This document shows positions 5,527 to 64,000 of a DNA stretch of 64,000 nucleotides, piece after piece. The translations under genes and the position numbers were made by a program. The DNA is from an uncultured Enterobacteriaceae bacterium (lineage in GTDB: Bacteria > Myxococcota_A > UBA9042). Where the stretch lies: positions 812 to 64,811 of the forward strand of contig CAZLMW010000025.1 in NCBI GenBank assembly GCA_964560875.1. The letters run 5' to 3'. The notes under the pieces are model-generated. The model did not search any database and was not told where the DNA came from. It worked only from the letters and a program-made list of their open reading frames with translations. Position 1 is the first letter of the stretch. Each line of letters opens with the position of its first letter.

Positions 5527-5589
5527 CTCGGGGTTTTGCTACGCGTCCCGCCAGTTTACAACCACCCCGATGAAAGCTTCGGGTCCCTC

Positions 5590-14090: not shown

Positions 14091-14240
14091 GGCGTCTCCG
14101 TGGTCGGTGGCCGCGTCGTGGAGCCGGCCTTACATATCGGACCCGTGGCGTCGACGAAAACCGAAAACGAAAATGTCGTGGCAAATGTAGACGAGGCTGC
14201 GGGTGCGCGCGCGCTGGGTGTCCAATGAACAGGAGGCGCG

Positions 14241-28387: not shown

Positions 28388-28578
28388 GTGTCGACTCCCG
28401 CCGGCGCCGCAGCGTCCGGTCGTTCCCGCCTCTAAAGCCGTTGTCGGGCTCAAACTGAAGGTTGCAAGAAGGAGTATGTACATAACCCGTCCGGGATCGG
28501 CTACGGCTCCCACGCGGGCGATCGAGATCTGCTACCATCGTGGCTGTGACGCCGATTGGAATCCCCTGCCGGATCGCG

Positions 28579-31500
28579 ATGATGAACCGTCCAAGCGCCC
28601 GCCCTGAGCTCGCGGGCTCATGGCTTCGTACGATCGTTCCGATCGCTGTTGCTGCAGCGCTCGCGGTCGCGTGTTCGGACGAACCGGGCGAGGAGTCGAC
28701 TCCCGCCAACGACACGCTGGTCTTCAACGTCCCGGATGCGGGGCCGAATTTCACCGGCGACGATGTGGTCGAAGCCGATGTCGCCGACTCCAACCAACAG
28801 GTCGATGACGCCGACGCGGCCGCCGACACTGGCCCGATCAAGTGCGACGACCCGGGCGGGTGGGGATGTCCGTGCAAGGGCAATGCCGACTGCAACAGCG
28901 GCTACTGCGTCGAAACGGCCGAAGGCAAACAGTGCAGCAAGCTGTGCGTCGAAGACTGCCCGGGCGACTGGCAATGCGTCGGAGTCAAGGGTTCCACCGG
29001 CGATCTGACGTTCATCTGCGCGGCGCCGTACGTGACCCTGTGCCGGCCCTGCGCCAAGGACGGTGATTGCGAGCAGTTGGGCGCGGAAATCGGCGTTCAC
29101 CGCTGCATTCCCATCGACGGTCCCGACGGCAGCCTGGTCGGCTCGTTCTGCGGCTACGGATGCGCGAACGGAGGCAACTGCCCGACCGGGTTCTCGTGCA
29201 CGAAGCTGTCGATCGGCGGCAGCACGATTGAACAATGCAGGCCCGACAACGGCACGTGCAGCTGCAGCAAGCAGGCGACGGCGGGCGGATTTGCGACCAA
29301 GTGCACGACGAAGAACGCGTTTGGAACCTGCGGCGGTCAGCGAACCTGCACCGACAAGGGACTCTCGGCTTGCGACGCGCCCGTCCCGGCGACCGAGGTG
29401 TGCGATGGCAAGGACAACGACTGCGACGGCGAGACCGATGAGGGCTACATCCACAACGACTTCGGCGTGACCAAACCCATCGGAAAACCATGCGGAGCGG
29501 GCGCGTGTGCCGGCGGCGAGGTCGTTTGCGCCAAGGACGGGAAGGCGGCGATTTGCAGTACCGGCGGCGGCAACGTCGAGCTCTGCGATGGGGCGGACAA
29601 CGACTGTGACGGCGCCACGGACGAGGCCAACGAGCTCGATCCGAAAGCGGCCAAGTGTTTCGACAAAGGCGTCTGCGCCGCTGGCGGGGCCAAGGCCACG
29701 TGCATCAAGGGGTCGTGGTCGTGCGACTACGCCGGGGTCAAGCTGTACGAAGCCACGACCGAAGTGTCGTGCGACGGCAAGGACAACGACTGCGATGGGA
29801 GCACGGACGAAGACTTCACCGTCGGCGCTGGCGGCAAGAAGCTGCCGGTCGGAGCGGCGTGTGGCGGCATCGGCATCTGCAAGAAAGGCATCGTCGAGTG
29901 CAAAGACGGTGTCGCGGGCGTGGCGGTCTGTTCAACCGGGGCGGGCGGCAGCAATGACGGCAGCAAGGGCGAGCGGTGCAACGATCTCGATGACGATTGC
30001 GACGGTGAGGTCGACGAGGGGTGCGACGACGACGGCGACGGCTTCTGCGACGTGCTCATGAAGATGGAAGGCGCGCCCAAGATCTGCGGCCAGGGCGGCG
30101 GCGACTGCGACGACAACAACAAGTTCGTCAATCCCGGCGCGACCGAGCTTTGCGACAACATCGACAACGACTGCAAGGCCGGCATCGACGATGGCTGCGA
30201 CGTCGACGGGGACGGCCACTGCTCCGACAAGATGACGATTGTGGGCAACCCATCGGTCTGCAAGAAGCTTGGCTTTGACTGCAACGACAAGGACAAGGCG
30301 ATTCATCCTGGCGCCAAAGAGGTCTGCGACGGGATCGACAACGACTGCAACGGCCAGGTGGACGCCGCGGATCTCAAGCTCAAGGACGTCGCGCCCAAGT
30401 GCGGCAATCAAAAGGGCGTCTGTGCCGGGTCGCTGCGACCTGCGAGCAAGTGCAACAACGGCAAGTGGCTCGCTTGCGATACGGCGGCGTATTTCGCCCA
30501 TCACGGTGCGTACGAAAACGCGCAATCTGAAAAGAGCTGTGACGGCGCCGACAACAACTGCGACGGCAAGATCGACGAGGGCTGTGACGACGACGGCGAC
30601 GGCCATTGCGACGCGGCCAAGGACACCAAGGGCGACCCGAAAATCTGCCCAAAAGGCGGCGGAGACTGTAACGACAAGGATGCTAAGGTCCATCCGGACG
30701 CCGTCGAGCTGTGCAACGGCAAAGACGACGACTGCAACAAGCTCGTGGACGCGAGCGACCCGAAGCTCGCCGCCAAACGGCCTCCATGCGAGAACCAAAA
30801 GGGTGTGTGCAAGGGCGCGCTCAAGCCCGTGTCGCTGTGCAAGAAGGGCAAGTGGAAGGCGTGCACCGATACCGAATACAGCAAGCATTCGCCGTTTCAC
30901 GAGCTCGGCCTGAGCGACCAGACCTGCGACGACATCGATAACAACTGCAACGGCAAGATCGACGAGGGCTGCGACGTCGATGGCGATGGCTCGTGCGGCA
31001 AGCTCAAGAAGGTGAAGGGGACGCCGAAGGTCTGTCCCAAGGGCGGCGGCGACTGCAACGACAACAACAAGGCGGTCAATCCGCACGCGCCCGAGGTGTG
31101 CGACAAGGCTTTCGTCGACGAAAACTGCAACGGAAAGGTGGGTGAGGCCGGCGCCAAGGGGTGCACCAGCTACTACTACGACGGCGACTCCGATGGCTAC
31201 GGGTCCAAGGGCTCAACGCCGATCTGCCTGTGCCAACCCGACGCCGTGAAGAAGCTGACCGCGCTCAAGTCCGACGACTGCAACGACGGCAACTTCAACG
31301 TCAATCCCGGCGCCAAAGAGACGTGCGCGACGGCCGGTGACGACAACTGCAACAACAAGGCGCAGGAGCTCGGCGCCGCGGGCTGCAAGATCTATTGGTA
31401 CGACCCTGACTTCGACGGTTTTGGCAGCGTCACCCACCCGCCGCGATGCCAGTGCTACCCCGACGCACAGACCAAGTACACGGCGACCAAACCCGGCGAC

Positions 31501-32724
31501 TGCGACGACGGCAAGGGCAACATCGGGCCCAACAAGACCGAGACATGCGCGACGCCGTTCGACGACAACTGCGACGGGAGCGACAACGACATCAACGCGA
31601 TCGGGTGCACGAAATTCTACGTCGACGCCGACAAAGACGGCTATGGCAAGAAGGGCAGCAACGCCGTCTGCATGTGCAAACCCATCGTGGCGAGCAACTT
31701 CACCGCGAAGAACAACAAGGACTGCAACGACGGCAACAAGAACGTGAAGCCGGGGGTCAAAGATACGTGCAAGACACCGGGCGTGGACGACAACTGCGAC
31801 GGCAAGACAGACCCGGAGAACTCGACCGGCTGCAAGAAATTGTACTACGACGGCGACGGCGACGGGTGGGGTGTCGGCGCGGCTCGGTGTTTCTGCAACT
31901 CACTCCCTCAGCTCAAGTTCACAGCGACGAAGGCCGGCGATTGCGACGACAAGGTCAAGACGCGGCGCCCAGGCGCGCCCGAGCTCTGCAACGGAATCGA
32001 CGACGACTGCGACAAAGTGGCCGACGAGGGGGCATCCAACTCGTGCAAGAAGGTGTCCGGGGCTGGCGTTATCTGCTCGGGCGGCAAGTGCAAGGTGAAC
32101 ACGTGCGGGTTCGGTTGGTTTGACGTCGACGGCAGCTACGCCAACGGCTGTGAGTGCAGGGCCGATGCGTACTACCTCGCGAAGAAGGGCAACTCCTGCA
32201 AGTCGGCTGTTGCCATCGCGACGGTCCCCGACAACGGCACCGTGCGGTACGTCGGCGGCAACATCATGCTGGGCGAATCGGGCGACTGGTATCGCGTCCA
32301 CGCGCAGGACCTGACCGATTCGGGCTCGTCGCGCTGCGATCGGTTCAACTTCACCGCCAAGCTGACCAGCAACCCGGGCAGCCAATTCCGGCTCGACATG
32401 TACCGCGGCACCTGCTCAGGCAGCGGGCTGCACTGCGCTGGCCAGACAACCGCCGGCTGGACGACGCGCTTTTACGGGCTTCCCTACGGTCCCCATCACA
32501 AGACGGGCACGGTCCGCGGACTGCACCGCAAGAGCCCCAACCCGCCGCGCGCTGGTGAATGCAAGTGCACGACGTCCAACGCCAGTGGCCAGAGCGGACC
32601 TGGACTGCCGGGGCTGAATATGTGCAGCAACAACTCGGCGACGTTCTACATCCGCGTGTACCGAAAGCCGGGTGCGAAGGCGACTTGTCAGAATTACACG
32701 CTCGCCGTCAGCAACGGCAAATAG
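28579..32724 (+). CDS. Giant Cys-rich lipoprotein with putative metal-binding (MopE-like) E.CDG.DNDCDG repeats and a C-terminal PPC-like beta-sandwich
   Basis: Lipobox LAVAC. Many ExCDGxDNDCDGxxDEG and YYDxDxDGYG units, roughly 115-120 Cys by eye count, and C-terminal DWYRV...FYIRVYR...YTLAV. Confidence 0.9.
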   Translation: MMNRPSARPELAGSWLRTIVPIAVAAALAVACSDEPGEESTPANDTLVFNVPDAGPNFTGDDVVEADVADSNQQVDDADAAADTGPIKCDDPGGWGCPCKGNADCNSGYCVETAEGKQCSKLCVEDCPGDWQCVGVKGSTGDLTFICAAPYVTLCRPCAKDGDCEQLGAEIGVHRCIPIDGPDGSLVGSFCGYGCANGGNCPTGFSCTKLSIGGSTIEQCRPDNGTCSCSKQATAGGFATKCTTKNAFGTCGGQRTCTDKGLSACDAPVPATEVCDGKDNDCDGETDEGYIHNDFGVTKPIGKPCGAGACAGGEVVCAKDGKAAICSTGGGNVELCDGADNDCDGATDEANELDPKAAKCFDKGVCAAGGAKATCIKGSWSCDYAGVKLYEATTEVSCDGKDNDCDGSTDEDFTVGAGGKKLPVGAACGGIGICKKGIVECKDGVAGVAVCSTGAGGSNDGSKGERCNDLDDDCDGEVDEGCDDDGDGFCDVLMKMEGAPKICGQGGGDCDDNNKFVNPGATELCDNIDNDCKAGIDDGCDVDGDGHCSDKMTIVGNPSVCKKLGFDCNDKDKAIHPGAKEVCDGIDNDCNGQVDAADLKLKDVAPKCGNQKGVCAGSLRPASKCNNGKWLACDTAAYFAHHGAYENAQSEKSCDGADNNCDGKIDEGCDDDGDGHCDAAKDTKGDPKICPKGGGDCNDKDAKVHPDAVELCNGKDDDCNKLVDASDPKLAAKRPPCENQKGVCKGALKPVSLCKKGKWKACTDTEYSKHSPFHELGLSDQTCDDIDNNCNGKIDEGCDVDGDGSCGKLKKVKGTPKVCPKGGGDCNDNNKAVNPHAPEVCDKAFVDENCNGKVGEAGAKGCTSYYYDGDSDGYGSKGSTPICLCQPDAVKKLTALKSDDCNDGNFNVNPGAKETCATAGDDNCNNKAQELGAAGCKIYWYDPDFDGFGSVTHPPRCQCYPDAQTKYTATKPGDCDDGKGNIGPNKTETCATPFDDNCDGSDNDINAIGCTKFYVDADKDGYGKKGSNAVCMCKPIVASNFTAKNNKDCNDGNKNVKPGVKDTCKTPGVDDNCDGKTDPENSTGCKKLYYDGDGDGWGVGAARCFCNSLPQLKFTATKAGDCDDKVKTRRPGAPELCNGIDDDCDKVADEGASNSCKKVSGAGVICSGGKCKVNTCGFGWFDVDGSYANGCECRADAYYLAKKGNSCKSAVAIATVPDNGTVRYVGGNIMLGESGDWYRVHAQDLTDSGSSRCDRFNFTAKLTSNPGSQFRLDMYRGTCSGSGLHCAGQTTAGWTTRFYGLPYGPHHKTGTVRGLHRKSPNPPRAGECKCTTSNASGQSGPGLPGLNMCSNNSATFYIRVYRKPGAKATCQNYTLAVSNGK

Positions 32725-36779: not shown

Positions 36780-36931
36780 CAATTGCGAGAAGACAGGGTT
36801 GAGTGAATATGGCACCGCGCGCTACCGCCGAGCCTAGCACATCGACAATCGGCCATCACAAAGTCTCGATAATGCTGTTTTACTCTGCCGGTGGGGCAGG
36901 CATTCGGGGGGCTTCGTGGCATACTCCGGCG

Positions 36932-39900
36932 ATGACCGAGCAGCTCGGATCGTACGAGTTGGTGCGACGCATTGTGACCGGCGATACAGCCGATCTCTAC
37001 CTTGGCCGACGCCACGGCGCGGCCGGGTTTACGCGTGAGTGCGTCGTCAAACGGCTCCACCCGCAGCTCGCCGCCGACGACGCCGCCGTCCACAGCTTCC
37101 TGTTTGAAGCGCGACTGACAGCGACGCTCCAGCATCGGAATATCGCCCAGGTGCTCGATTTGGGCCGCATTGGCGGTGCGTACTACGCCGCTCTCGAGCT
37201 GATCGATGGGCCGGACCTCGAACGTGCCCTGCCCCGCGTGGACGCCAAGGACCCGCTGCGTCCCGATCTCGCCGCCTGGATCGTCGCGCGCGCCGCCGAT
37301 GGCGTCCATTTCGCTCATGAATTCCGCGACCCGCTCAGCGATGAGCCCCTCGAGCTCGTGCATGGCCACCTCAGCCCGCGTTCCATCGTCATTTCGCGGC
37401 AAGGCGACGTAAAATTGCACGGCTTTGGACGCCTCGGTTCCGGGCGCGCCCACAATCGGCCCGGGTACGCAGCTCCCGAGTTCGTCAACGGTGCGGTGGT
37501 CGATCGACGCGCTGATGTCTACGCGTTGGGCCTGCTCTTGCGCGCATTGACAGCCCACGACTCCGATCCCGGCCTGGAAGCCATCATCGGCAAAGCCACC
37601 GCCGATGATCCCCGGGATCGCTACGAGCATGCCGGCCACCTGGCAACCGCGCTGATGCGTTGGCTGATCATGGCCGGACAGCCCGACTGCACGGCCGCGC
37701 TTGGCCAGTGGGTGGCCGCCAACCTCGATGACCTGTGTCCCAGCTTCTCGGACACCAAGCCGGCGGGGAAGCGAGGCAAACGGCGCCGTCGCCGCGAAAC
37801 GCTGGAGCTGGACGGGCGCGAAATCACCTCCGAGATCTTCGAGTCGAGCCAGCACGCCATCCCGCGCCATAACCTGCCCGACGGCAAACCTCCACGCCTG
37901 TACGGTCGCACCGCTGAGCTGGGTCGTGTCGCGGATCATCTCGATGCCGGTGCAAGGGCGGTGGCGCTCGGAGGGGTGGCTGGCATCGGCAAGAGCCGCA
38001 TCGCCCGGTCGATCGCACGCAGCCACGTTGATGCTGGCGGGTCGGCGTGGGTCGTCGACCTCAGCGACGTCGCTACCGCCGAGGCCGCCGCCGGTCGCGT
38101 CGCCAATGCCCTCGGTGTCGGGATGTCCGGCAACACGACCAAGGACGCCGCGATCGCGCACATCGGACGCGCCCTGGCTCGAGCACCGTTGCCGCTCTTG
38201 GTCCTTGACGGCGTGGATCTGCTCGTCGATGACGCGCCCGGCGTGATCCCGCCACTGCTGTCCGAATGCCCGCCGCTGCGGATGCTCATCACGACACGTC
38301 GTCGCGTCCAGGTGGATGGCGTCGTCAGCGTCGTCGTTCAGCCTTTGTCGATCCCATCCGAGCCCCGAAAAGCCGCTCGGTCAGACGCGGTCCGCTTCTT
38401 CGTGTCGCGGGTGCGCCGCGTGCGCAAGGATTACCGCCCAAAACGCAGCGAAGTGACTACGATCGTTGGTATTCTGCGTCGCCTCGACGGGATTCCATTG
38501 GCGATCGAGCTGGCCGCCGCCGTCATGGCTGACTGCACCGCGCGCCAGCTCCTGCAGCGCCTCGAGACGCCGTCTGAGGTGCTCGAGGTCACCGGGCGTT
38601 CCAGCCGGGCTCGCATGGGCAAGCGCGCGCGGACCTTGCGCGACGCCATCGCGCTTTCTTGGACACAGCTATCAGACTCCGAGCGCGAAAACCTCCAGCA
38701 GTTGGTTGTCTTTCGGGGCGGTTTCGACGCCGAGGCTGTCGGGGCGGTGCTCGGCGAGGGCGTCGACGCATCCGCTGTGATCGACGGCCTTGTCGCCCAT
38801 TCGATGGTGCGCGAGGTCGATGAGACCCAGCGTTGGGGAGGCGACAAGGCCCGCAACGCAGCAAGCTCTCCCCGCCGGCCGCGGTTTGTCATGTTCGAGA
38901 GCGTGCGGGCATTTGTTTACGAGCAACCTGTCGATCCCGAGGCGCGCACGCTCACGCTGCAACGGCACGGCCGATACTACGTCGAGGAAGGCGAGCGCAA
39001 CGCTTCCCTGGTGACGACCCACGATGGTCCACCGGCCGTTGCGTGGCTCATGGACGACCGCGACAACCTCGCGGCGGTGCATCGACGCGCTCTCCGCGGC
39101 AAAGGGGAAGCCGAAGGTGGCGCCGAAACCGCCCTGCGTATCTGCCTGCTGCTGTCCCGCGTTATGATCCTGCGCGGCCCCAAGGCTACACTCATGGCGA
39201 TGTACGACGACGCGATCGACGCCCTGAACGGTCTCAGCACCACCGATGTCGCGCAGATGGATCAGACTTTGCTGGCGCGCTCATTGGCTCGCTACGCCGA
39301 GTACCAGGCGCTTGGCGGCAACGCTCGCGACGGCGAAAAATATGCCAAACGCGCCACGCAGATCGCCCGCGCAACCGGGGATATCGGCGCCATTGCGGCT
39401 GCGCACTATGGTCGTGGCGTGTGTTATCGGCTCAGCGGGCGAACCGAGCAGGCCATCGCCGCAACCACCCGCGCCCGATCCCTTGCGCAACGGGTCGAGG
39501 ACATCGCGCTCGAGGCCGAAGCGCTCAACATCACGGGCAGCGTCTACTACGACATGTGCGAGCGGAACGTCGCCGCGAAATGCTTCGTCGCCGCCCAGGC
39601 CGCCGCTCGGCACGTCGGACACGGCGAGCTGGTGGCGCAGCTCACGTGCAACCTCGGTTGCGTGTGCGTGGAACGTGGCAATACCGACCGCGCGCTCGCG
39701 TACTTCCACGAGGCGCTCGGCCAGGCCCGAACCGAAGGCGACATCCGCCTCGAAGGAAGCATCCACCTGTACATGGCGGTCGCGGCGCAGGAACGCGGCG
39801 ATATGGGCCTGTCGCGGATGCACTTTCAGCGCTCGATCGACCTGCTGGACAAGGTCGGATTCCGCCATCGCAAGGTCTACGTCGAGGGATTGCGGGCGTG

Positions 39901-40357
39901 GTTCTTCCTCGAATGCGGAGAGCGCCGTGACCTCGCGCGCGTCAAGGAGACGTTTGAGCGCATCGTCGACCACTTCGTCGACAAAGGTGACTGGCGATGG
40001 CGGTCGATGTTCCTGGCCACACTCGCCCTCATCGCGTCCCGAACGGGAGACGATCGCCGCGCCAAGGTGCTGCTGGATGAGTCGCGCCGGCTCGCCGACG
40101 GTCAACACGATCCCGCTGCCGGTGGCGTCTACGAGGTCTTCGCGGCCGGCGTTGAGCTGATCCAGGCAGACTCCGCAGCCAAGCCTGCAACCACGCAACG
40201 GCTCCGCAAGAGCGCCGCTCATCGGCTCGATTCGGTGCGATTGCCCCGCGACGGTCACACGATGGGAGGGGGCACCAAACCGCCCTTGACCGAGATGTGC
40301 TGCGAGGTTCGAACCGCGCTTCGGATCGTCGAGGCGATGGGGCTGACGCCCGCCTAG
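36932..40357 (+). CDS. Ser/Thr kinase-like (pseudokinase) domain + STAND/NB-ARC-like ATPase + TPR repeats
   Basis: Kinase fold (VVKRL, FEAR, HRNI, GYAAPE, DVYALG) with HGH replacing HRD and GFG replacing DFG. Walker A GVAGIGKS, Walker B LLVLDG, DGIPLAIELAAA, then TPR-like helices. Confidence 0.9.
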   Translation: MTEQLGSYELVRRIVTGDTADLYLGRRHGAAGFTRECVVKRLHPQLAADDAAVHSFLFEARLTATLQHRNIAQVLDLGRIGGAYYAALELIDGPDLERALPRVDAKDPLRPDLAAWIVARAADGVHFAHEFRDPLSDEPLELVHGHLSPRSIVISRQGDVKLHGFGRLGSGRAHNRPGYAAPEFVNGAVVDRRADVYALGLLLRALTAHDSDPGLEAIIGKATADDPRDRYEHAGHLATALMRWLIMAGQPDCTAALGQWVAANLDDLCPSFSDTKPAGKRGKRRRRRETLELDGREITSEIFESSQHAIPRHNLPDGKPPRLYGRTAELGRVADHLDAGARAVALGGVAGIGKSRIARSIARSHVDAGGSAWVVDLSDVATAEAAAGRVANALGVGMSGNTTKDAAIAHIGRALARAPLPLLVLDGVDLLVDDAPGVIPPLLSECPPLRMLITTRRRVQVDGVVSVVVQPLSIPSEPRKAARSDAVRFFVSRVRRVRKDYRPKRSEVTTIVGILRRLDGIPLAIELAAAVMADCTARQLLQRLETPSEVLEVTGRSSRARMGKRARTLRDAIALSWTQLSDSERENLQQLVVFRGGFDAEAVGAVLGEGVDASAVIDGLVAHSMVREVDETQRWGGDKARNAASSPRRPRFVMFESVRAFVYEQPVDPEARTLTLQRHGRYYVEEGERNASLVTTHDGPPAVAWLMDDRDNLAAVHRRALRGKGEAEGGAETALRICLLLSRVMILRGPKATLMAMYDDAIDALNGLSTTDVAQMDQTLLARSLARYAEYQALGGNARDGEKYAKRATQIARATGDIGAIAAAHYGRGVCYRLSGRTEQAIAATTRARSLAQRVEDIALEAEALNITGSVYYDMCERNVAAKCFVAAQAAARHVGHGELVAQLTCNLGCVCVERGNTDRALAYFHEALGQARTEGDIRLEGSIHLYMAVAAQERGDMGLSRMHFQRSIDLLDKVGFRHRKVYVEGLRAWFFLECGERRDLARVKETFERIVDHFVDKGDWRWRSMFLATLALIASRTGDDRRAKVLLDESRRLADGQHDPAAGGVYEVFAAGVELIQADSAAKPATTQRLRKSAAHRLDSVRLPRDGHTMGGGTKPPLTEMCCEVRTALRIVEAMGLTPA

Positions 40358-40370
40358 AGCCGCCTAGAGC
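40350..40370. repeat. Perfect 10-bp tandem duplication CCGCCTAGAG x2 at a convergent gene junction
   Basis: Read directly. Each copy contains CTAG; the two copies supply the TAG stops of the two convergent genes. Confidence 0.9.
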
Positions 40371-41233
40371 GGAAAGGCGAACACGAAGCCACGATTGCGC
40401 TTGGAGTCGCTGTCTCGCGTTGCCATCGCCTTGTAGAGCAGCTCCACAGGGACCCAGAACGGCGGGTATTTGTACCGCGCGACGTCGAGGATGAGCACGC
40501 TGTCGGTGGGCGCGTGGTAGGCGGCCAGGGGCGAAAAATGGCCGCCTCCCTTGCCGTTGTCGCTGAGAACGCCGCGCTTGAAGTTGACCGCCATGTGCCA
40601 GCCGGGACGGCCGAGGAAAAGCTTGACCCGTTTGCGAAACGCCGCCGCCGAATCGACGGTCTCGCAGTCATTCGGTCCGCTCGTGGCCGGTTTCGTCCCG
40701 CCGGCATGGGCACAGCCGGCGCGCACACCGTTGGTCTGCAGCAACATCCGGTTCTGTTGCAGCGTCATGCCCCTTCGCGAGACACGGTCTGGGTTGACGT
40801 GTTCGCGCGCGCCCTTGTGAAAGATGTTGCACTGCGTGAACCACGGATACGGCGCATAGGGCTGGGTGCAGGGTTTGCTGCCGTCCATGGAGTTGAGGAT
40901 CGTGGTCGCCGTTGCAACGCCGCAGAAAGACTGGGTGATTTGCTGCTCGGTATAGGCTTGGAGTCGCGCCTTGTCAGCGCAGTGGGTGCATTCTTCGAGC
41001 CGCCGCTGTCCCTCCGTCGTCAGGATCGACAACAAGCGCGACGGCAGCTTCTTGGCCCGGCATTGCTTCGGCGCGGGCCGGAAACGTTTCACGCAGGACA
41101 TCGGTCCGGGCGCGGGCGACGGACCGGATTTCTGAACCGGGGTGGAACACGCTGCAAACGCACCGACGAGTGCGATCGCGATCAAGTGCGCATGTCGGTC
41201 GCGCCGAATGGGAGCAAGCATCGATTCATCCAT
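40364..41233 (-). CDS. Phytochelatin synthase-like lipoprotein (peptidase C83, papain fold)
   Basis: Lipobox FAAC. QITQSFCGVA (Gln/Cys), GGHFSPLAAY (His) and LILDVARYKYPPFW (Asp) give an intact triad. Confidence 0.93.
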   Translation of the reverse strand: MDESMLAPIRRDRHAHLIAIALVGAFAACSTPVQKSGPSPAPGPMSCVKRFRPAPKQCRAKKLPSRLLSILTTEGQRRLEECTHCADKARLQAYTEQQITQSFCGVATATTILNSMDGSKPCTQPYAPYPWFTQCNIFHKGAREHVNPDRVSRRGMTLQQNRMLLQTNGVRAGCAHAGGTKPATSGPNDCETVDSAAAFRKRVKLFLGRPGWHMAVNFKRGVLSDNGKGGGHFSPLAAYHAPTDSVLILDVARYKYPPFWVPVELLYKAMATRDSDSKRNRGFVFAFPL

Positions 41234-42008
41234 TGAGCTCAGCGAGCGGATCGATCTGCAGGTAGCCGCGAAGCCAGCGCACGCCCATGTAGAACGGCAC
41301 GGTGTCGATCAGCGCGCAGACGAACTTGAACACATACCCCGAGGCGATGAGCGCGAACAACTGCGGCCAGATGGGTTGGTCGGCCTGGATCGGCAGCGCC
41401 TTGGCGTAGAAGTGGGTGATGAGGATGACCGCGGTGGAATCGACGAGCTGGCTCGCGAGGGTCGACGCGTTGTTGCGAAGCCACAGGTGCTTGCCTTTGG
41501 TCACGCGTTTCCAGAAGTGAAAGATGTACACATCACACATCTGCGCGGCCAGGTAGGCGATCATCGACGCGGCGACCGCGCCAAATGCCAGCGCGCGGAT
41601 TTCGTAGAACACGGGAACGCGGCCGGCGGCGTCGCGGACCAATTCTCCGGTCGTTGGGTCGATCGCCTCGTAGCCCGGCAAGATGCCGCCCGACCAGAGC
41701 ACTGCCACGACCCACACATTCAGCGCCAACCCCATCCACACGACGGCGCTGGCGCGGGCACGCCCGTAGAATTCGCTGATGAAATCGGTGCAGAGGAAGG
41801 TGACTGGATACGGCAAGACGCCCACGGCCAACACAAACGGGATCTTTGTGCCCGCCACCTCGAAGCTCATGTCGATGAAGCGGCTGATGCCGAGGATGTT
41901 GAGCATCGTCAACGAGCCGAGAAATAGCCCCGTCAGCACCAGAAACACGCGTTCACGGCGCGCGTGAAGGGCCGAAGCCTCGATCGGATGTAGCGCGGGT
42001 TCAGCCAT
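41226..42008 (-). CDS. yhhQ: Queuosine precursor transporter (YhhQ/VUT family)
   Basis: YPVTFLCTDFISEFYG, ASMIAYLAAQ..D...FH and WLRNNASTLASQLVDS motifs. Confidence 0.92.
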   Translation of the reverse strand: MAEPALHPIEASALHARRERVFLVLTGLFLGSLTMLNILGISRFIDMSFEVAGTKIPFVLAVGVLPYPVTFLCTDFISEFYGRARASAVVWMGLALNVWVVAVLWSGGILPGYEAIDPTTGELVRDAAGRVPVFYEIRALAFGAVAASMIAYLAAQMCDVYIFHFWKRVTKGKHLWLRNNASTLASQLVDSTAVILITHFYAKALPIQADQPIWPQLFALIASGYVFKFVCALIDTVPFYMGVRWLRGYLQIDPLAELNG

Positions 42009-45037: not shown

Positions 45038-46525
45038 TCAGCGCGCGGCGAGGAAGTTGCCGTGAAAGGTCATCGGGACGTGGTGGTCGAAATGGCAGCG
45101 GGCGAGCGCTTCACGGCTGGGATCGGCGGCGTCGAGTACGGCGACGTGGCTGGTGTCGATGACCGGATCGTAGACGAGCGTCAGCAACCAGCCGTCGTCT
45201 TCGGCGGTCGCGCCGGGTCGCGGCACGAACACGGGTTCGCTGGGCCAGCAACCGGGGCGAGATTGGCTCGCGATGGCGTCTCCCGTCTGTGAATCGACCT
45301 TGATGATGCGCTCGTCGGCGAAGTCACCCGCGTCGCCCTGGCACATCCACACGTACCGGTGCGCCCTGCCCTCGACGCGCGGATTGACGCGCGCGAACTC
45401 GCCGTAGACTTCGCCCACATCGGTGGTGGTCATCGTCTTGGCCGACAAATCGATCCGGCATTGTGCGTAGCGCCCTTTGTAGTCTCCGCGCGGATTCGTG
45501 GGCCGTGTCGTCGCGTCGTTGCCGGCGTGGATTAGATCGCCGACGCCCTGCATCGAGTCGAAGTTGTCGTAACGGCACAGGTCGAAGCGAATCGTCCCGT
45601 CGTCCGTCGAAAAGCCGTTGCCGAAGTGCCAGACCCAGAACGGATCGGCCTCAAAACGCGTGACGTTGGCTGGGTCATCGAGCGGCACGACGACAACTTC
45701 CATGCCGAGATCTGGCCGCCAAGCGAATGTCTTGTGGGCTGGTCGCATCATCGCGAGCGCTCGCCAGACGTTGATCTTCACCGGTGAGATGAGGGCCACG
45801 AGGTGGTTTTCGGTGGCGACGAAGTCGTGAATCATCGTCGGAAAACGCAGGGCAACCGTGCTGATCCGGCGCGCCGGTCGCTGCGCATGCCACGCGTAGA
45901 AATCCAGGTGCGACGTGACGCCGTAGCGCACGCCGATATTGAAGACCGTGTCGAGCGCGTCGACCCGATGCGGATGGGCGGAAAACGGGCCCACGACAGC
46001 CCCGCCGAGATCGGTTTCGCCGATGGTTTGCAGCGTGTCGGGATCGAGCTCGTAGGGTTTGCCGACTTCCATCAGCGCAAAGAGTCGCCCCTGCCACGGC
46101 AAGACATTCGTATTCGCCGCGTTTTTGATCTTGCCAGTCCATGCCTTGCTGATGCGCGACCACAACGGGGCCGACCAGCCATAGCGAAGTCCCCCTGCCG
46201 CGCGCTCTTCCAGCAGTCCGTCGGTTTGCACGAGCGCAGCCGCGCCCTCTGCTCGTCCGTCGCCGAAACGAACGGCAACCACGCCCCCGTCGCCTTCGAA
46301 CCAGTGGCTGTACACATCTCCAAACGGTGCGACCTGCATGGCCCCGTTTCGATACAGCGTGCCCTGCAGCCCAGCGGGGAGTTCGCCCTCGATCCGCAGC
46401 TGCTCGAATCCGTGTTCGCGCGGCAGGTTGCGCATGACCGACGTCCAGTCCCGGTTCGGATCGCCCGTCTGGGCATCGGTGTTGGTGGTCGACGAGGACT
46501 TTTTTTGCATGGCGTCGAAGGGCAT
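45038..46525 (-). CDS. Carotenoid/stilbene cleavage oxygenase family (RPE65-like)
   Basis: HWFEGDG, four Fe-ligand His motifs (FSAHPH, MIHDF, VWHF, TFHG), EFARVNP and EPVFVPRP. Start ATG 46525 inferred. Confidence 0.93.
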   Translation of the reverse strand: MPFDAMQKKSSSTTNTDAQTGDPNRDWTSVMRNLPREHGFEQLRIEGELPAGLQGTLYRNGAMQVAPFGDVYSHWFEGDGGVVAVRFGDGRAEGAAALVQTDGLLEERAAGGLRYGWSAPLWSRISKAWTGKIKNAANTNVLPWQGRLFALMEVGKPYELDPDTLQTIGETDLGGAVVGPFSAHPHRVDALDTVFNIGVRYGVTSHLDFYAWHAQRPARRISTVALRFPTMIHDFVATENHLVALISPVKINVWRALAMMRPAHKTFAWRPDLGMEVVVVPLDDPANVTRFEADPFWVWHFGNGFSTDDGTIRFDLCRYDNFDSMQGVGDLIHAGNDATTRPTNPRGDYKGRYAQCRIDLSAKTMTTTDVGEVYGEFARVNPRVEGRAHRYVWMCQGDAGDFADERIIKVDSQTGDAIASQSRPGCWPSEPVFVPRPGATAEDDGWLLTLVYDPVIDTSHVAVLDAADPSREALARCHFDHHVPMTFHGNFLAAR

Positions 46526-46575
46526 CGTGCTCTCCCGAATCGATGGAGTTGTGGCCGGCAGGAAGTTGCGTCGGC

Positions 46576-46596
46576 AATGTAAGCGCTGATAACATT
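46576..46596. promoter_or_regulatory. Putative TetR operator, imperfect palindrome AATGTAAGCGCTGATAACATT
   Basis: AATGT-N11-ACATT dyad in the spacer between the divergent oxygenase and TetR genes. Confidence 0.6.
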
Positions 46597-46702
46597 CGCA
46601 GCGACGACCTTGCAATGCCCGGTGCCGACGGGCATTGGAGCAAAGGGGTCGGGTCGCCCCGCCGAAGCGACAGACAAAGACCGTACAGCTACGAGGGAAA
46701 CG

Positions 46703-47377
46703 ATGAACCGGCCCAGCTATCACCACGGCAACCTCCGCGCGGCTCTCGTCGCCGCGGGCACCGAACTCATCGCCGAGTCGGGCGTCGAAGCGGTCAATAT
46801 GCGCGAACTGGCGCGTCGGGCTGGGGTGTCATCGGCGGCGCCGTATCGCCATTTCGCGGACAAGGACACGCTGCTCGCGGCCATCGCCGCCCAGGGTTTT
46901 GAGCGCCTCGTCGATCGCATGCGGGAAGTGGTCGCTGATGCCGACGATGCGTCGGAGGGGTTCGCGCGCCAGGGGATGGCGTTCAGCACGTTCGCGATCG
47001 CCAACCCCGCGCATTTTCGGGTGATGTATCTGCCGCACCTGCACGACGAAGAGCGGTTTCCGGACGTCGTTGCGCTGTCGCAGGAGGCAACTGGGCTGCT
47101 GTTCGGTCAGATCAAGGCCGCGCAACAGGCTGGGTTGGTTGCCAACTTCGATGTGCAACATATCGCGCTGGCCGCGCTCGCCCTCGTCTACGGCACCGCC
47201 CGTCTCTTCGTCGATGGCGTGATCCCCGATTCGGACCCTTGCATCGCGCAGCAGGTGACCGCCGCGGTGATCGAGGTCATGGGCAAAGGCATCGCGCCGC
47301 GGGCTGGCCAGGACTCCGAGCGCCCTCAATCCATCGCGACGATCCAGGCGCGCCTGATGCCCTTCGCGGGCGAGTGA
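46703..47377 (+). CDS. TetR/AcrR family regulator (WHG-type C-terminal domain)
   Basis: YHHGNLRAAL...LARRAGVSSAAPYRHFADK HTH; NPAHFRVMY and ALVYG C-terminal motifs. Confidence 0.93.
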   Translation: MNRPSYHHGNLRAALVAAGTELIAESGVEAVNMRELARRAGVSSAAPYRHFADKDTLLAAIAAQGFERLVDRMREVVADADDASEGFARQGMAFSTFAIANPAHFRVMYLPHLHDEERFPDVVALSQEATGLLFGQIKAAQQAGLVANFDVQHIALAALALVYGTARLFVDGVIPDSDPCIAQQVTAAVIEVMGKGIAPRAGQDSERPQSIATIQARLMPFAGE

Positions 47378-58763: not shown

Positions 58764-61151
58764 CTACCGGCGGCGACTGGCTTTGCTTTTGCGCCCAGCA
58801 CCGGCTGCCGCTGCAATGCGCAGATCGAGCGCCGGAATCGCAGAGCCGGTGTAGAGCATCCGGTAGCGAATCCAGGACGTGACAACGCTCTTGACGTAGC
58901 GGCGGTTTTCGCGAAACGGAATGCGCTCAACGAACTCATCGAGCGCCGCGCGACGCCATCGTTTCAGCCACTTCTTGGTGTTGTGTGGACCGGCGTTGTA
59001 GCCCGACGCGATGAGCGGGTACTGACCGCCGGTGATGTCGAGCAGCCGTCGCATGTACGCGGTGCCGAGGCGGATGTTCAGCGCGGGTTGGGTGAGCGAA
59101 GCGCGCGTGATGGGGCCCTTGTGTCCGATTCGGCGCGCGACGGCCTTGCCGGTTCCCGGCATCAACTGCAGCAGGCCAGTGGCGAGCACAGGGCTGGTCG
59201 CGCGGGGGTTGAAGCGTGACTCCGACCGCATGATGGCCCAGATGAATGCCTCGTCCACGCGGTACCTCTTTGCCTCGCGCGTCACAGCGTCGCGGAATCC
59301 GCCGGGGCGGGGGTACGCGAGCTCCCAACGCTGCCGATTGCCGTCGACCGCAGGCCGCCGATCGAAAGAGTGATCGCGGCTGGCGATGGCGGTTGCCCGG
59401 GTGTGTTCGCCGACCGCGCCGTGGAGCATCGCGCGAAACATCTGCTGGTCCGGCTTGCGCTTGTCCCATTTTACAGCCGCCATCTCGGCGGCGGCGGAAG
59501 TAGCCATGCCAAGTCGAAGCAGCTCGATGCCCGCGAGCAGGTGGTCGTTGTCGAGCAGCTGCCGATTGGCCGCGAGCAGATCCGGGCTGCCCGCCCCGCT
59601 GCCGGTTTTCGGCGTGTGCTTGATACCGAGGTCGCCGAGCCGTCGCTGCGCCAGCATCCCGTACCAGGTCCATGGCGTCTGGTTGTTCACCGACTTGTAG
59701 CTCGCGATCGCGGCTTTGCGCTTGCCCGACCGCTGTTCACAGACGCCCTGCCAGTAACGAATCCGTCCGACGTTGTAGATCTTGGATTCGCCGCGCGTGG
59801 CAGCTGTGGCGCGTTTGGCCGTTGAAATGCAGCGCTTCCACATCCGCGCCTGGACGTCCCGCCACAGCAGGTCCCAGCCGGCGTACTCGACCATATCGCC
59901 GCCCAGCGTCAGGATCTTGGCAAGCATCTTGTCCGCGGCGGCCTGGCGGCCCATGGAGCGGAGAATTCGCGCCCGGTAACGCATGGTGTCATCGACCAAC
60001 GTGGATTGCGGGGCGACCGCCGCGACTTCAGCGAACAGCTCGATCGCGCGGCGCCCGGAGGCCGAATTCATCTGACGTTTCGCCGCCCGATAGCGGAGTT
60101 TGGCGGACCACGCGGTCTTTGGACACGTCTTGGCAAGACGGTCATAGAGCGCAGCGGCTTCCTTTCGGCGCGGCCACCACGTCTCGAGCGCTCGGGCCTT
60201 CACGACTCCAGCGTCGCACCACGTGCGGGACGCCTTCTTCGCGGCTTTCATCGCCTCGTCGGCGGTTGCGATGGCGAGCTTGCGCTTGTGTCGTTTGCGG
60301 GCGTTGCTTGCGCGCTGCAGCAGCTCTTTGGCCGACAAGCGTGCGTGTTCCCCGGGCAAGTCCTCGAGACGCTTTTCAGCCTGCTTGGCTGCGCTGGTGC
60401 CCGGGTGCTGGACCGAAATCGCGCGCAACCAGCGCGCTTCCTGTTTGGGTTTTCCCGCACCCGCCGCGGCCTCAGCGGTTTCGAGCAGCAACGACGCGGT
60501 CGCCCTGCCCGAACCGGCCGCTGTCGTGTAGGCCTTGAGAGCCTTGGCATGGTCGCCCTTCTGACGCCATGCGCGCCCGCGGACCTCGGTCGCCCGCCGT
60601 TTTCGCGCGTAGCCGTTTGAAATGCGGTCGAGGGCCTTCAGGGCGCGGTCGGGATCGCCCGCTGCGAGCCACGTCTCGGCTGCTCGAAGTGAGAGGTGGT
60701 CGCCCAGGAGCGGCGCGTTCTTGGCGAGCGCGTCGTAACCGCGTGCCGCGGCGCGAGGATGGCCGGCGTGTTCCTGGCACAGGTGCATCAGGATCGCAGC
60801 TTGTCGTCTTTGCGGGTGCCTGGCCTGGTCGGCGAGAAGCTTCGCGAAACCGGCTGCGCATCCGGCCCAGTCGCGCTTGTCGAACGCTTTGCGAGGCGCC
60901 GTTGCAGCGAGGTACGGCCGCATCTTGGCCGCCGCGTCACCCTCGCTCAGCAGCGTCTTCTTGACCGCCGCTTTGCTCGCTCCATCGGGGACTTCAGGCA
61001 GCGGCACATCGGCATTCACCGCCTTCGCGGGTATCGAAGGCGCGCCCGGGGTTGCCGGTCCTGCTGCTTGTTTGGCCACGGACTTGCCACAGGCCATCGA
61101 CGCCACCGAGGCGGCGATCACAAATACGCCGATCGCTCTCATGTTCCACAT
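58764..61151 (-). CDS. slt: Slt70-like soluble lytic transglycosylase with TPR/alpha-superhelical N-terminus (probable lipoprotein)
   Basis: Lipobox SMAC (alternative start 61142). AIMRSESRFNP.A.S...A.GLLQLMP.T, ASGYNAGP and ERIPFRENRRYVK. Confidence 0.92.
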   Translation of the reverse strand: MWNMRAIGVFVIAASVASMACGKSVAKQAAGPATPGAPSIPAKAVNADVPLPEVPDGASKAAVKKTLLSEGDAAAKMRPYLAATAPRKAFDKRDWAGCAAGFAKLLADQARHPQRRQAAILMHLCQEHAGHPRAAARGYDALAKNAPLLGDHLSLRAAETWLAAGDPDRALKALDRISNGYARKRRATEVRGRAWRQKGDHAKALKAYTTAAGSGRATASLLLETAEAAAGAGKPKQEARWLRAISVQHPGTSAAKQAEKRLEDLPGEHARLSAKELLQRASNARKRHKRKLAIATADEAMKAAKKASRTWCDAGVVKARALETWWPRRKEAAALYDRLAKTCPKTAWSAKLRYRAAKRQMNSASGRRAIELFAEVAAVAPQSTLVDDTMRYRARILRSMGRQAAADKMLAKILTLGGDMVEYAGWDLLWRDVQARMWKRCISTAKRATAATRGESKIYNVGRIRYWQGVCEQRSGKRKAAIASYKSVNNQTPWTWYGMLAQRRLGDLGIKHTPKTGSGAGSPDLLAANRQLLDNDHLLAGIELLRLGMATSAAAEMAAVKWDKRKPDQQMFRAMLHGAVGEHTRATAIASRDHSFDRRPAVDGNRQRWELAYPRPGGFRDAVTREAKRYRVDEAFIWAIMRSESRFNPRATSPVLATGLLQLMPGTGKAVARRIGHKGPITRASLTQPALNIRLGTAYMRRLLDITGGQYPLIASGYNAGPHNTKKWLKRWRRAALDEFVERIPFRENRRYVKSVVTSWIRYRMLYTGSAIPALDLRIAAAAGAGRKSKASRRR

Positions 61152-61248
61152 CCGCGCCGAATGTCGCACAGAACCGGCGATGCGCAAGTCGATCCGCGTT
61201 CATCGGCTCGACACGTCGGTGCTACCCGCCAAATCGGGGCCAGGGGCG

Positions 61249-62319
61249 CTACGACTCGTCTTTTCGGCCGGTGACGCCGACCACCATGTCCGATTTGCGC
61301 CGCTCGCCGATCCCCGAGCTTCGCCGACGCCCATACGAAGACGTGGATCGAACACCTGTAATCGATGAAGTGCGGCGCCCTGTGAGGTCGGAATCGCGCC
61401 GACCCATCGTCTCGGAAACCCGCCGCGCCGCGCCAACATCCGAGGTGCGCCGGACCCCGCCGACGTCCGATGGTCGGCGATTGACAGTCAGGGCCGACGT
61501 CCGCCGCATCGATGCGCGACTGCCCGGCGCCTGGTCCTTGACGACATCGAGCCGTCCGACGATGTCGATCGCGAGAGGGTGGCTCATCATCGCGGCGCCG
61601 CGTGCCTTGGCTTCGTCCATGCCCGATACGACCTGCGCGACCGCGAACGTATGGATGTCGACCACATCGCCAGGCGTGCCACCCAGCCGCTGAATCGTGG
61701 TCGCGATGTGGCGCAGCGGCGCGCGTGATTGGCGTTTTCCTTCGCGTCGGTTGCGGACCCATTCCACAAGCACCTGGGCGTAGGCATCGACGGTTTCCTT
61801 GAACTTGTCCGGTCGCGATTGGCGCAGCAGCGGGTTCCAGCCCTTTGTCGCCGTGAGCCACCCGTTGACGATGTGTGTGCTGACCAGTTCGTAGGCCGTT
61901 GCCCGTCGTTCCGCGAGCCTCGCATCGTTCATCCGGTGCTGCCCGATCACCGAGCTGACCAAGAGGCGCGCCGACACGGCATTCAGTCGCTTTTCGTGCA
62001 TGACATCGGACGCACCGGCCTGGAGGCAGAGGGCCTCGAAGCCGTCCGCCTCGCCACCGTAGACAACGGCCGTCGGCAGATCCGGGCGCGCCGAAAGGAA
62101 CTGGCGCAACGCCTGTTCGATGGCCGGGTCGGGTTCGGTGAGATGCAGCAGCAACAGGTCGCCGCGGTTGGCGCGGATATAGTCCAGCGCCCCCGCATAC
62201 GTCTCGACCCAGCCGATCTCGTATTCGTTGCGTCGGTCGCGATCGAAAAGCCGCGTGTACATGGACCGCTCGAGCTGACTGGCCGCGCGGATCGTGAGTC
62301 TCCAGGTGTTGATTGCCAT
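61249..62319 (-). CDS. Pseudo-receiver domain + KaiA-C/RsbU-N-like helical domain + RRxS-repeat tail
   Basis: Receiver fold lacking the acidic pair (RAAS), the phospho-Asp (DLLLLHL), the Thr and the Lys. Then GDVVDIH and LAIDIVGRL, and about 8 RRxS motifs in the last 90 aa. Confidence 0.75.
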   Translation of the reverse strand: MAINTWRLTIRAASQLERSMYTRLFDRDRRNEYEIGWVETYAGALDYIRANRGDLLLLHLTEPDPAIEQALRQFLSARPDLPTAVVYGGEADGFEALCLQAGASDVMHEKRLNAVSARLLVSSVIGQHRMNDARLAERRATAYELVSTHIVNGWLTATKGWNPLLRQSRPDKFKETVDAYAQVLVEWVRNRREGKRQSRAPLRHIATTIQRLGGTPGDVVDIHTFAVAQVVSGMDEAKARGAAMMSHPLAIDIVGRLDVVKDQAPGSRASMRRTSALTVNRRPSDVGGVRRTSDVGAARRVSETMGRRDSDLTGRRTSSITGVRSTSSYGRRRSSGIGERRKSDMVVGVTGRKDES

Positions 62320-62424
62320 CGATTTCCATCGGTGAGTTCGAGAGGGGCCAATGAGGCGTGTAAGCATAGCGCTGACAACAGCGAGCGTCATGTTCTAACG
62401 CCTTGGTTGCCGCTTTGCTAGCTA

Positions 62425-64000
62425 TCAGTGCTGCTGTTTGCGCTCGGTCACGCCGTTTTTGCGGCGCTGTCGCTCCTCTTTTTGGTCGTATCGAAGCCAC
62501 TTGAGGCGCAACAACTGCGCATCCGTGCCTGTTCCACCCGTGTAGCGATCTGCCGGGTACAGCCGATGCCCGGCCCAGATCGCATCAAGCCATGCGTACC
62601 AGCGCTCGAGTTGGCAGGCATCCAGCGGAAACGACCCATCGGAAAGCAACCGCGCTTTGTCTTCGCAGAGCTGGGGGAGCGTGCCCAGCGGGATCGTGCG
62701 GCGGCTCTTGGCTGACTGAACGTACGCGCTGCGTCGCCCGGTTCGACCGACCAGGAATGCAAAGCGGCGCCGATCTCCAAACACCGAGTAGCCGAGAAAG
62801 GAGTTGTCGAGCTTGGCGGTGTCCAAGCCCAACAGGTGCAGCATCGTGGGCGCGAGGTCGAGCTGGCTGCTCAAGACATCGACGGTCGCCGGCAGAGCGT
62901 GCAGCGGGTCGTGGATCAGCAAGGGCATTTGCGCAAACGCGCCGAAAAGCGCGTCGTTGCCGATGAGACGTTGGATCTTGCGTGTCGGCAGCTGGGCGTG
63001 GTCGCCGGTGATAACGACCAGCGTGCTGTCCCAAAGCCCCTTGGCCCGCAGCCCCGCGAGGATGCGGTCAACCGCCAGGTCGGTGCAGTAGAACCCGGAA
63101 AGCACACGTTCTCCGGCGATTTCAGCCGGCGGCTCACACGCAGGGTCCACGAAGCCCGGAAGGTGGCTGTCCACCGTCAACAGCGCGTAAAACCAGGGTT
63201 TTTGAACGTCTCTGAGACGGTCGAACTCGGTGAGCATGAAGTCGGCGAGGGTCCGGTCGAAGTAGCCCCAACTGTTGGTCGGCCGGTTCGGGAACAGGTG
63301 CTTGAGGTCTTCGCGCCCTGTCACGGCGTCAAATCCGTGGCCGCGCAAGATCGCCTCGGCCCCCATGTAGACCTTGCTCGCGCCACGAGCGAAATACGTT
63401 GCATAGCCGGCGTCTCGCAGCACATCGGCGATGCAACGGTAGGCGGCGCCACCATCGACAGTCCCGCCGACGTCGATATCCTGGACAGCGGCCGCGGGCA
63501 CGGTTGAACACATGCTTGCGATCAGGCCGTTGGCGGTCGGGGACGCGATGTTGTGAAAGCCTCGCACGTGCGTCATCGACTCTGCGCTGCGTTCGAGCCG
63601 CGGCATGACCCCGGCGTTTTTGCTGGCCGCGTGCAGGCCGGTGAACCCGACGTTGAGGGATTCGACGTGGATCAGCAGCACGTTGGGCGGTCGCTTCCCG
63701 GTATTCCTCCCGGCGGCCTCGGCGATCGGCGCAAGATTCGCCACCGTTGCTGTTGCGCGCCGTGGCAGGGCATCAACCGCACCGAATCCCGTTCGGCGGA
63801 CTGGCCATGGTCCGTTTGGTTTGGCGTTGGGCGCGATGATCCCGGCTCGGCGCATGACGGCCACGTCTTCCTCGGACAGCTTGGGAATGGTGACTGAGGC
63901 CGGGTCCGCGGGTTTGCCGTCGTCGGCAAGACTGCCGGCAAGTGTGTACAGCGCGTTGATTTCCGGGACGATGGCCCAGTGATGCGGGTGTTGAGGCTGG
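62425..64000 (-). CDS. LTA-synthase/alkaline-phosphatase-superfamily sulfatase-like transferase (5' end off the window)
   Basis: PNVLLIHVES, SPTANG (Thr nucleophile), DSHLPG, TGDH and SQLDLAPT. The frame stays open from 63864 to the window edge. Confidence 0.88.
   Translation of the reverse strand, partial: QPQHPHHWAIVPEINALYTLAGSLADDGKPADPASVTIPKLSEEDVAVMRRAGIIAPNAKPNGPWPVRRTGFGAVDALPRRATATVANLAPIAEAAGRNTGKRPPNVLLIHVESLNVGFTGLHAASKNAGVMPRLERSAESMTHVRGFHNIASPTANGLIASMCSTVPAAAVQDIDVGGTVDGGAAYRCIADVLRDAGYATYFARGASKVYMGAEAILRGHGFDAVTGREDLKHLFPNRPTNSWGYFDRTLADFMLTEFDRLRDVQKPWFYALLTVDSHLPGFVDPACEPPAEIAGERVLSGFYCTDLAVDRILAGLRAKGLWDSTLVVITGDHAQLPTRKIQRLIGNDALFGAFAQMPLLIHDPLHALPATVDVLSSQLDLAPTMLHLLGLDTAKLDNSFLGYSVFGDRRRFAFLVGRTGRRSAYVQSAKSRRTIPLGTLPQLCEDKARLLSDGSFPLDACQLERWYAWLDAIWAGHRLYPADRYTGGTGTDAQLLRLKWLRYDQKEERQRRKNGVTERKQQH

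Follow-up and report, generated by a model that had tools for sequence, protein, structure and literature searches.

A divergent protein of probable KaiA3 descent, encoded apart from kaiB and kaiC in a subsurface, myxobacterium-like lineage

KaiA converts the KaiBC hourglass into a self-sustained clock. In canonical KaiA (structures 1r8j, 4g86 and 5c5e; C-domain 1v2z, 1q6a and 5jwr) a pseudo-receiver, which senses oxidised quinone, is joined to a helical bundle, in which H271 of the S. elongatus protein lies at the centre of the dimer concavity and is functionally essential. To our knowledge, KaiA was thought to be restricted to cyanobacteria before KaiA3 was recognized. KaiA3 comprises Sll0485 of Synechocystis sp. 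PCC 6803 and its orthologues (Koebler et al. 2024, PMC11372060). Most myxobacteria are reported to have 1–7 kaiC homologues that keep an A-loop-like sequence and lack the KaiB-binding loop, with no known kaiA and only rarely a kaiB (PMC11832031). The protein described here is encoded near one end of a 64-kb stretch (64,000 nucleotides) of contig CAZLMW010000025.1, hereafter the window. Its gene (61249..62319, reverse strand; 356 codons plus a stop, from the list of open reading frames and the alignment of homologues) specifies a pseudo-receiver, a linker, a KaiA-type bundle and a tail that is rich in RRxS sites.

The explanation that best accounts for the results as a whole, to which we give a probability of roughly 0.6, is that the KaiA superfamily is represented here by a divergent, stand-alone protein that descends from the KaiA3 type and would work by a KaiA-like mechanism; that it belongs to the KaiA superfamily is, taken alone, very probable. 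Like KaiA3, it has a receiver-type N-domain, a linker and a KaiA-like C-terminal bundle, whose profile matches those of KaiA3-type proteins at E-values of 1e-16 to 1e-23. In contrast to KaiA3, whose gene lies directly upstream of kaiB and usually then kaiC, the window gene has neither kaiB nor kaiC adjacent to it, and the protein comes from a subsurface, myxobacterium-like lineage and belongs to a rare subfamily of which seven sequences are known. A preliminary description of this DNA had proposed a KaiA-like architecture consisting of a pseudo-receiver and a KaiA-C-like bundle, and that proposal is borne out by the homology to KaiA3, the KaiA profile, the kaiBC operons of the relatives and the Foldseek matches.

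Relationship to the KaiA3 family

An exhaustive HMMER search with a profile of the bundle (residues 128–268) against 1.84 billion representatives recovered only three clusters of the protein's own kind (P0004, P0006 and the 34%-identical P0007). The next 83 proteins had E-values from 1.4e-7 to 1e-3, and in these the match nearly always covered the C-terminal 100 residues of a protein that was often ~270–300 residues long. Comparison of the subfamily with this KaiA3-type family by hhalign gave a probability of 99.6% and an E-value of 1.7e-23, and the two main KaiA3-type subgroups gave 1.9e-16 and 1.9e-18; the homology of the bundle to the KaiA3-type C-domain is therefore secure.

The large family is identified as KaiA3 because four lines of evidence agree: the search of Protein Data Bank (PDB) sequences, hhalign, the genome context, and the match in taxa and synteny to the literature. 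When the family profile was searched against PDB sequences, all but one of the nine best matches were KaiA C-domains (1v2z, E 0.0019; 1q6a, 0.0023; 5jwr, 0.0037; then 5c5e, 1r5q, 1r8j, 5n8y and 4g86), and hhalign of the family with a two-sequence KaiA alignment gave an E-value of 6e-5. Genome and metagenome scans for relatives were run with the subgroup alignments. Among 80 named genomes, kaiB is within ~100 nucleotides downstream of the family gene in 77 and kaiC follows in 54; for the subgroup closest to the window protein, kaiB follows the gene in 32 of the 33 metagenome loci that have enough downstream DNA, and kaiC comes next where the contig allows. Three family members looked up at random all lie directly upstream of kaiB, which is followed by kaiC in two of them. 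The 80 genomes include Microcystis, Crocosphaera, Synechocystis, Roseiflexus, Chloroflexaceae, Blastocatellia and Desulfobacterales, and both taxa and synteny agree with published KaiA3, down to the Microcystis and Synechocystis genes without an adjacent kaiC (PMC11372060).

The C-domain of the family has the consensus TA..G..PLR...P..F..L...Y..LL ... GPRDVVDxH..AL ... EGRLLxLELMGxLVxYYR, and no NCBIfam or Pfam model covers it. The N-terminal modules are more varied, comprising 49 true receivers, ~17 PAS domains and 5 GAF domains among the 84 sequences scanned, as well as MEDS, MASE3 and HAMP. The range of the KaiA3-type domain, with its PAS, GAF, MEDS, MASE3 and HAMP fusions, is wider than the published range of KaiA3. 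At loci L007–L086 and L094–L130 (P0008–P0120), the gene for the domain directly precedes kaiB(-kaiC) in Chloroflexota, Chroococcales, Blastocatellia, Desulfobacterales, Ca. Moanabacter and others. A few loci depart from this arrangement: the KaiA3-type genes of two metagenome-assembled genomes of Chthonomonadaceae / Chthonomonadales (L050 and L054) have no kaiB or kaiC within 6 kb, and a third (L106) has none in the available flank, which includes only ~1 kb of downstream DNA. Orphan KaiA-like genes thus exist beyond the window subfamily. Gene calling at three loci (L004, 7300–8618; L005, 7494–8363; L006, 2967–4188) gives the KaiA-like domain a short gene of its own immediately behind one for a receiver or PAS protein, and the L004 product begins in the middle of a receiver; these separate calls are split genes, frameshifts or assembly errors.

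On the sequence evidence, the link of the window protein to KaiA itself is transitive, running through the KaiA3 family. A profile of the six-sequence subfamily bundle found nothing meaningful among PDB sequences; a match to EME1 (E 0.045) was rejected as spurious.

Pseudo-receiver, helical bundle and C-terminal tail

The pseudo-receiver (residues 1–112; 61984..62319, reverse strand) was delimited from profile matches to solved receivers, residue mapping and the β-α pattern of the AlphaFold2 (AF2) model, in which the predicted local distance difference test score (pLDDT) is 70–86 over residues 1–80. A six-homologue profile matched solved receiver domains, namely 6oap (E 5.5e-6), 3kht (1e-4) and several CheY structures (1e-3). 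With the whole protein as query, a phmmer search of the PDB gave receiver matches only and an NCBIfam scan a weak LuxO receiver match only. The phosphorylation residues were mapped in an alignment with CheY and eleven KaiA3-type receivers. At the positions of CheY D12, D13, D57, T87 and K109 the window protein has A, A, H, Y and E, in agreement with the preliminary description, in which the receiver was said to have lost every phosphorylation residue. The equivalents of the acceptor D57 and of T87 are missing in all six close homologues, whereas the KaiA3-type receivers in the alignment retain all five residues. The acceptor Asp (D65 in Sll0485) is reported to be missing also from the KaiA3 of Microcystis and Pleurocapsa (PMC11372060); the window protein differs from KaiA3 in lacking all five residues and not just the Asp. 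The N-terminal domain is a pseudo-receiver, as in canonical KaiA. It is followed by a long linker helix (residues 113–156; 61852..61983, reverse strand), which is modelled with low confidence and corresponds to the AF2 helices H114–156 and H2–29 of the full and domain models.

The KaiA-type bundle (residues 170–265; 61525..61812, reverse strand), defined from the translation, AF2, Foldseek and hhalign, includes the sequences GDVVDIH and LAIDIVGRL and the basic loop GKRQSRAPLRH. The segment VNGWLTATKGWNPLLRQSRPDKF (residues 151–173; 61801..61869, reverse strand), the best-conserved stretch of the subfamily, leads into the bundle; by its translation, invariant columns and hhalign registers it aligns with 'TA..G..PLR...P..F' of KaiA3-type proteins, and its 'P..F' corresponds to PDRF, residues 173–176 of S. 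elongatus KaiA. In the profile alignments the counterparts of GDVVDIH (61651..61671, reverse strand) are (T)KVVEIH in KaiA, where the motif ends at H237, and GPRDVVDxH in KaiA3-type proteins. The preliminary description was right about the presence of this motif and gave it a span, 61651–61668, that covers DVVDIH only. LAIDIVGRL (61549..61575, reverse strand) is equivalent to (T)LIDVIAHL of KaiA and to LaLElMGyL of KaiA3-type proteins, and places R256 at the position of KaiA H271, where KaiA3-type proteins have Tyr, His, Asn, Leu or other residues.

The KaiA strings that had been quoted for comparison are correct when checked against the sequences of PDB 5n8y, 4g86 and 1r8j, and the KaiA-like spacing claimed for the two motifs is upheld. 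The 'ID' pair is one residue nearer to the His in the window protein (H223 and I251-D252) than in KaiA (H237 and I266-D267). The profile alignments keep one register, in which H223 corresponds to H237 and A250-IDIVGR-L257 to L265-IDVIAH-L272, and KaiA has one additional residue between the two motifs. The motifs VV(D/E)IH and (A/L)ID(I/V)..(R/H)L are thus shared in register with canonical KaiA. The bundle retains the core of the family, which consists of the segment P..F, the residue Y180, the motif P-x-D-V-V-D-I-H and the helix with D/E-x-x-G-x-L, and the corresponding KaiA3 motifs (P..F, Y, P-x-D-V-V-D-x-H and E/D-x-x-G-x-L) are present in both proteins. The longer and nearly invariant KaiA3 motif R-L-L-x-L-E-x-M-G-x-L-x-x-Y-Y-R is matched by D252, G255 and L257, for its D/E, G and L. 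The loop GKRQSRAPLRH (residues 194–204; 61708–61740, reverse strand), which joins bundle helices 1 and 2, is strongly basic, invariant from K195 to H204 in six close homologues, and different in KaiA3-type proteins.

The full-length AF2 model has a pLDDT of 57 overall and ~66–85 over the bundle. In a Foldseek search of the PDB with this model, full-length KaiA came first (4g86, E 3.3e-4; 1r8j, 5.7e-4; ~300 columns), with low TM-scores because the domain orientation differs from that in KaiA. The bundle modelled alone has a pLDDT of 77 (83–94 over residues 170–265) and a predicted TM-score of 0.70. Foldseek of the bundle (residues ~165–265) had been proposed earlier as a check for KaiA-C; with the predicted model as query, KaiA-C structures were among the best matches (5jwr, 1q6a, 1v2z and 5n8y), the superposition on 1v2z having a TM-score of 0.71, a root mean square deviation of 3.1 Å and a probability of 0.97. 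Canonical KaiA is therefore the best Foldseek match to the full model and among the best to the bundle.

The remainder of the protein is a disordered tail (residues 266–356; 61252..61524, reverse strand; pLDDT ~30) with nine RRxS sites, as counted in the translation, and the end motif RRKSDMVVGVTGRK. The number expected in the window tail is 0.74, and none of 5000 shuffles of the tail reached nine. All seven family members, P0007 at 34% identity included, have 5–9 RRxS sites in tails of 79–141 residues, and such sites are almost absent from the folded body. The end motif is conserved as RRKSDMVVxVxGRKxE. The KaiA3-type proteins inspected stop shortly past YYR, and none has an RRxS tail, which is the most distinctive feature of the window subfamily. 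It was absent from the preliminary description, whose span of 61549–62319 identified the correct gene and strand and covers residues 1–257, ending within the last bundle helix and omitting the 91-residue tail. The possibility that RRKSDMVVGVTGRK mimics a KaiC tail and thereby acts as a pseudo-substrate in cis was considered and rejected: it has no likeness to KaiC3-type C-termini (...FRNVTGILSG...ERLSxLF..). A further site of the basophilic-kinase type, KRQS, is present in the loop GKRQSRAPLRH of the bundle.

Proposed mechanism and alternative readings

In the reading that we favour the protein descends from a KaiA3-type ancestor, with conversion of the receiver to a pseudo-receiver, departure of the gene from kaiB and kaiC, and gain of the RRxS tail. 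By analogy with KaiA, the bundle would form a dimer that clamps onto a peptide of its partner enzyme, thereby switching the activity of that enzyme. The likeliest segment would be the C-terminal A-loop or tail of a KaiC-family ATPase whose gene is elsewhere in the genome, and a KaiC-type ATPase is put forward as the partner only tentatively. Phosphorylation on Asp is no longer available as an input. In its place, a basophilic Ser/Thr kinase may phosphorylate the RRxS tail at multiple Ser residues, a proposal that we hold a little more firmly than the identity of the partner and still at somewhat less than even odds. Kinases of this type are abundant in myxobacterium-like genomes. The sequencing runs that carry the gene are subsurface metagenomes, and for this reason we would expect a stress switch or one of the hourglass type as the output, and not a circadian clock driven by light. 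The boldest form of the proposal, in which the protein is the missing KaiA-type activator of myxobacterium-like KaiC homologues, wired to eukaryote-like Ser/Thr kinases through its RRxS tail, is improbable. If that activator reading were true, a KaiC-based timer or stress switch would be operating in the dark subsurface. A member of the KaiA superfamily in an aphotic, myxobacterium-like lineage means in any case that the KaiA module has travelled, and been rebuilt, further than described, being located off kaiBC, without receiver chemistry and with a multisite Ser tail that is putatively phosphorylated. The window protein is a concrete candidate for the study of how orphan KaiC homologues are regulated, and its importance would be greater if genome co-occurrence or binding tied it to a KaiC homologue.

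Several results weigh against a KaiA3-derived protein with a KaiA-like mechanism. The whole protein matched no Pfam family at E ≤ 10, neither KaiA-C (PF07688) nor RsbU_N (PF08673), the two families with which comparison had been suggested. By hhalign, the six-sequence subfamily aligned with single KaiA or RsbU sequences in the expected register at an E-value of 0.32; unlike the comparison with KaiA3, the direct profile comparison with canonical KaiA is not significant. The Foldseek E-values for the bundle alone are weak (0.5–1.2), as is usual for small bundles. Two of the three motif clusters common to KaiA and KaiA3 are altered and fixed in the subfamily: an invariant H247 takes the place of the Arg ahead of the last helix (R262 in KaiA), and K261 and D/E262 that of the terminal Y276-R277 of KaiA, part of YYR in KaiA3. 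The position of KaiA H271 is occupied by the invariant R256. As the preliminary description had noted, the 64-kb window includes no kaiB or kaiC (tblastn, nothing below E 0.7), and neither gene is found within 10 kb at any of ten subfamily loci, whereas nearly all KaiA3-type relatives have them adjacent. The protein thus differs from canonical KaiA in the absence of a PF07688 match, of R262, Y276 and R277 and of a kaiBC cluster, as well as in the Arg at H271 and the additional RRxS tail.

The principal alternative is that the protein is a former KaiA, descended from KaiA3 and no longer acting on KaiC, in which the bundle, remodelled with the invariant H247, R256 and K261 and the loop GKRQSRAPLRH, would bind a new partner; candidates would be a Ser/Thr kinase or phosphatase, the protein's own phosphorylated tail, or an adjacent cell-envelope enzyme. 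The location of the gene outside a kaiBC operon at every subfamily locus, the loss of the Arg and of the YYR that KaiA and KaiA3 have in common, and the gain of a conserved RRxS tail seen in none of the inspected KaiA3-type sequences are all in its favour, as is the order of the sulfatase gene, the KaiA-like gene and the SLT lytic transglycosylase gene on one strand at every locus with enough DNA. The changes in the motifs are, however, compatible with a KaiC partner because the residues of the KaiA–KaiC contact are poorly conserved even in functional KaiA3 (PMC11372060), and in myxobacteria kaiC is usually not adjacent to kaiB either (PMC11832031). The constant neighbours may likewise reflect shared ancestry, since the loci are syntenic over ~20 kb. 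On balance, we regard a change of partner as rather unlikely, and retain KaiA3 descent with a KaiA-like mechanism as the better explanation.

The preliminary description had named an RsbT-like kinase as an alternative partner; the bundle would then be an RsbU-N-like adaptor, of the type found at the N terminus of B. subtilis RsbU. KaiA-C and RsbU-N have one fold and an equivalent partner-binding site (PMC11372060). The window protein shares with RsbU-N the four-helix-bundle fold class, an 'I-x-I-H'-type motif in the third helix and a weak in-register alignment; the 74 columns that hhalign aligned between the KaiA3-type family and RsbU-N have the expected register (E 0.002), and one KaiA3-type relative, P0012, has a sub-threshold RsbU_N match (E 0.014). 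The window protein itself has no significant sequence or fold match to RsbU-N. No RsbU chain appeared in the PDB sequence searches at E ≤ 10 or among the Foldseek matches to the full model or the top 50 to the bundle, where KaiA dominates. The bundle is C-terminal to a receiver, whereas RsbU-N is N-terminal to a PP2C phosphatase domain, a domain that Pfam did not find in the protein. Among the 30 window open reading frames scanned, none is a HATPase_c (anti-sigma-type kinase) or STAS gene, and the relatives are linked to kaiBC (kaiB in 77/80 and 32/33 loci) and not to rsb genes. An RsbU-N-like adaptor with an RsbT-like partner gains no support and is very unlikely. Most remote of all is a chance resemblance, with coincidental motifs in a generic helical linker behind a degenerate receiver: the domain is indeed unrecognised by curated libraries, and globins and designed bundles are among the numerous weak fold matches that small helical bundles attract, but the profile statistics exclude this explanation (E 1.7e-23 by hhalign against the KaiA3-type family; E-values as low as 1.4e-7 by HMMER against the 1.84-billion library, nearly always in the C-terminal domain). 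The rank of KaiA, the top match to the full model and one of the best to the bundle, also speaks against it.

Neighbourhood, distribution and other genes of the window

The start of the gene was assigned to the ATG at 62319 rather than to the upstream ATG at 62391 because all five homologues open with 'MA..' and can be aligned from residue 1. Seven metagenome contigs bear a called open reading frame with an identical 356-residue product. The gene is flanked on the same strand by a sulfatase-family gene (62425–63999), which is separated from it by 105 nucleotides, runs out of the end of the window and encodes ~690–730 residues in homologous loci, and by a gene for a TPR-SLT lytic transglycosylase of 807 residues (58764–61187), at a distance of 61 nucleotides. 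The three genes are found in this order, co-directional and with gaps of 24–138 nucleotides, at every subfamily locus with enough DNA. Synteny between the subfamily loci extends over all of the ~20 kb surrounding the gene, so that adjacency does not in itself imply a link in function, and the sulfatase and the transglycosylase were accordingly discounted as functional partners.

The seven known sequences of the subfamily fall into three clusters at 50% identity, and no further members were found in GTDB representative genomes or in JGI metagenome contigs. The best named relative of the holA product of the window is from a 'Myxococcales bacterium' (49% identity). STAND-type Ser/Thr kinases, FG-GAP proteins and MopE-repeat proteins are typical of myxobacterium-like genomes. 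The window encodes on the forward strand a STAND-type Ser/Thr kinase with Pkinase, NB-ARC/AAA_16 and TPR regions (36803–40357), which is a candidate kinase for the RRxS tail. A similar STAND-type kinase gene is present 9 kb from the homologue at another locus (L001). Also present are a 1412-residue protein with at least eight MopE-type metal-binding motifs (28486–32724, forward strand) and a 1299-residue FG-GAP repeat protein (24632–28531, reverse strand). Elsewhere in the window are genes for a non-ribosomal peptide synthetase-like protein with adenylation, carrier and hexapeptide regions (14229–18773, forward strand), an MscS channel fused to a cyclic-nucleotide-binding domain (4072–5538, reverse strand), a phytochelatin-synthase-like protein (40364–41308, reverse strand) and an RPE65-type carotenoid oxygenase (45038–46828, reverse strand).

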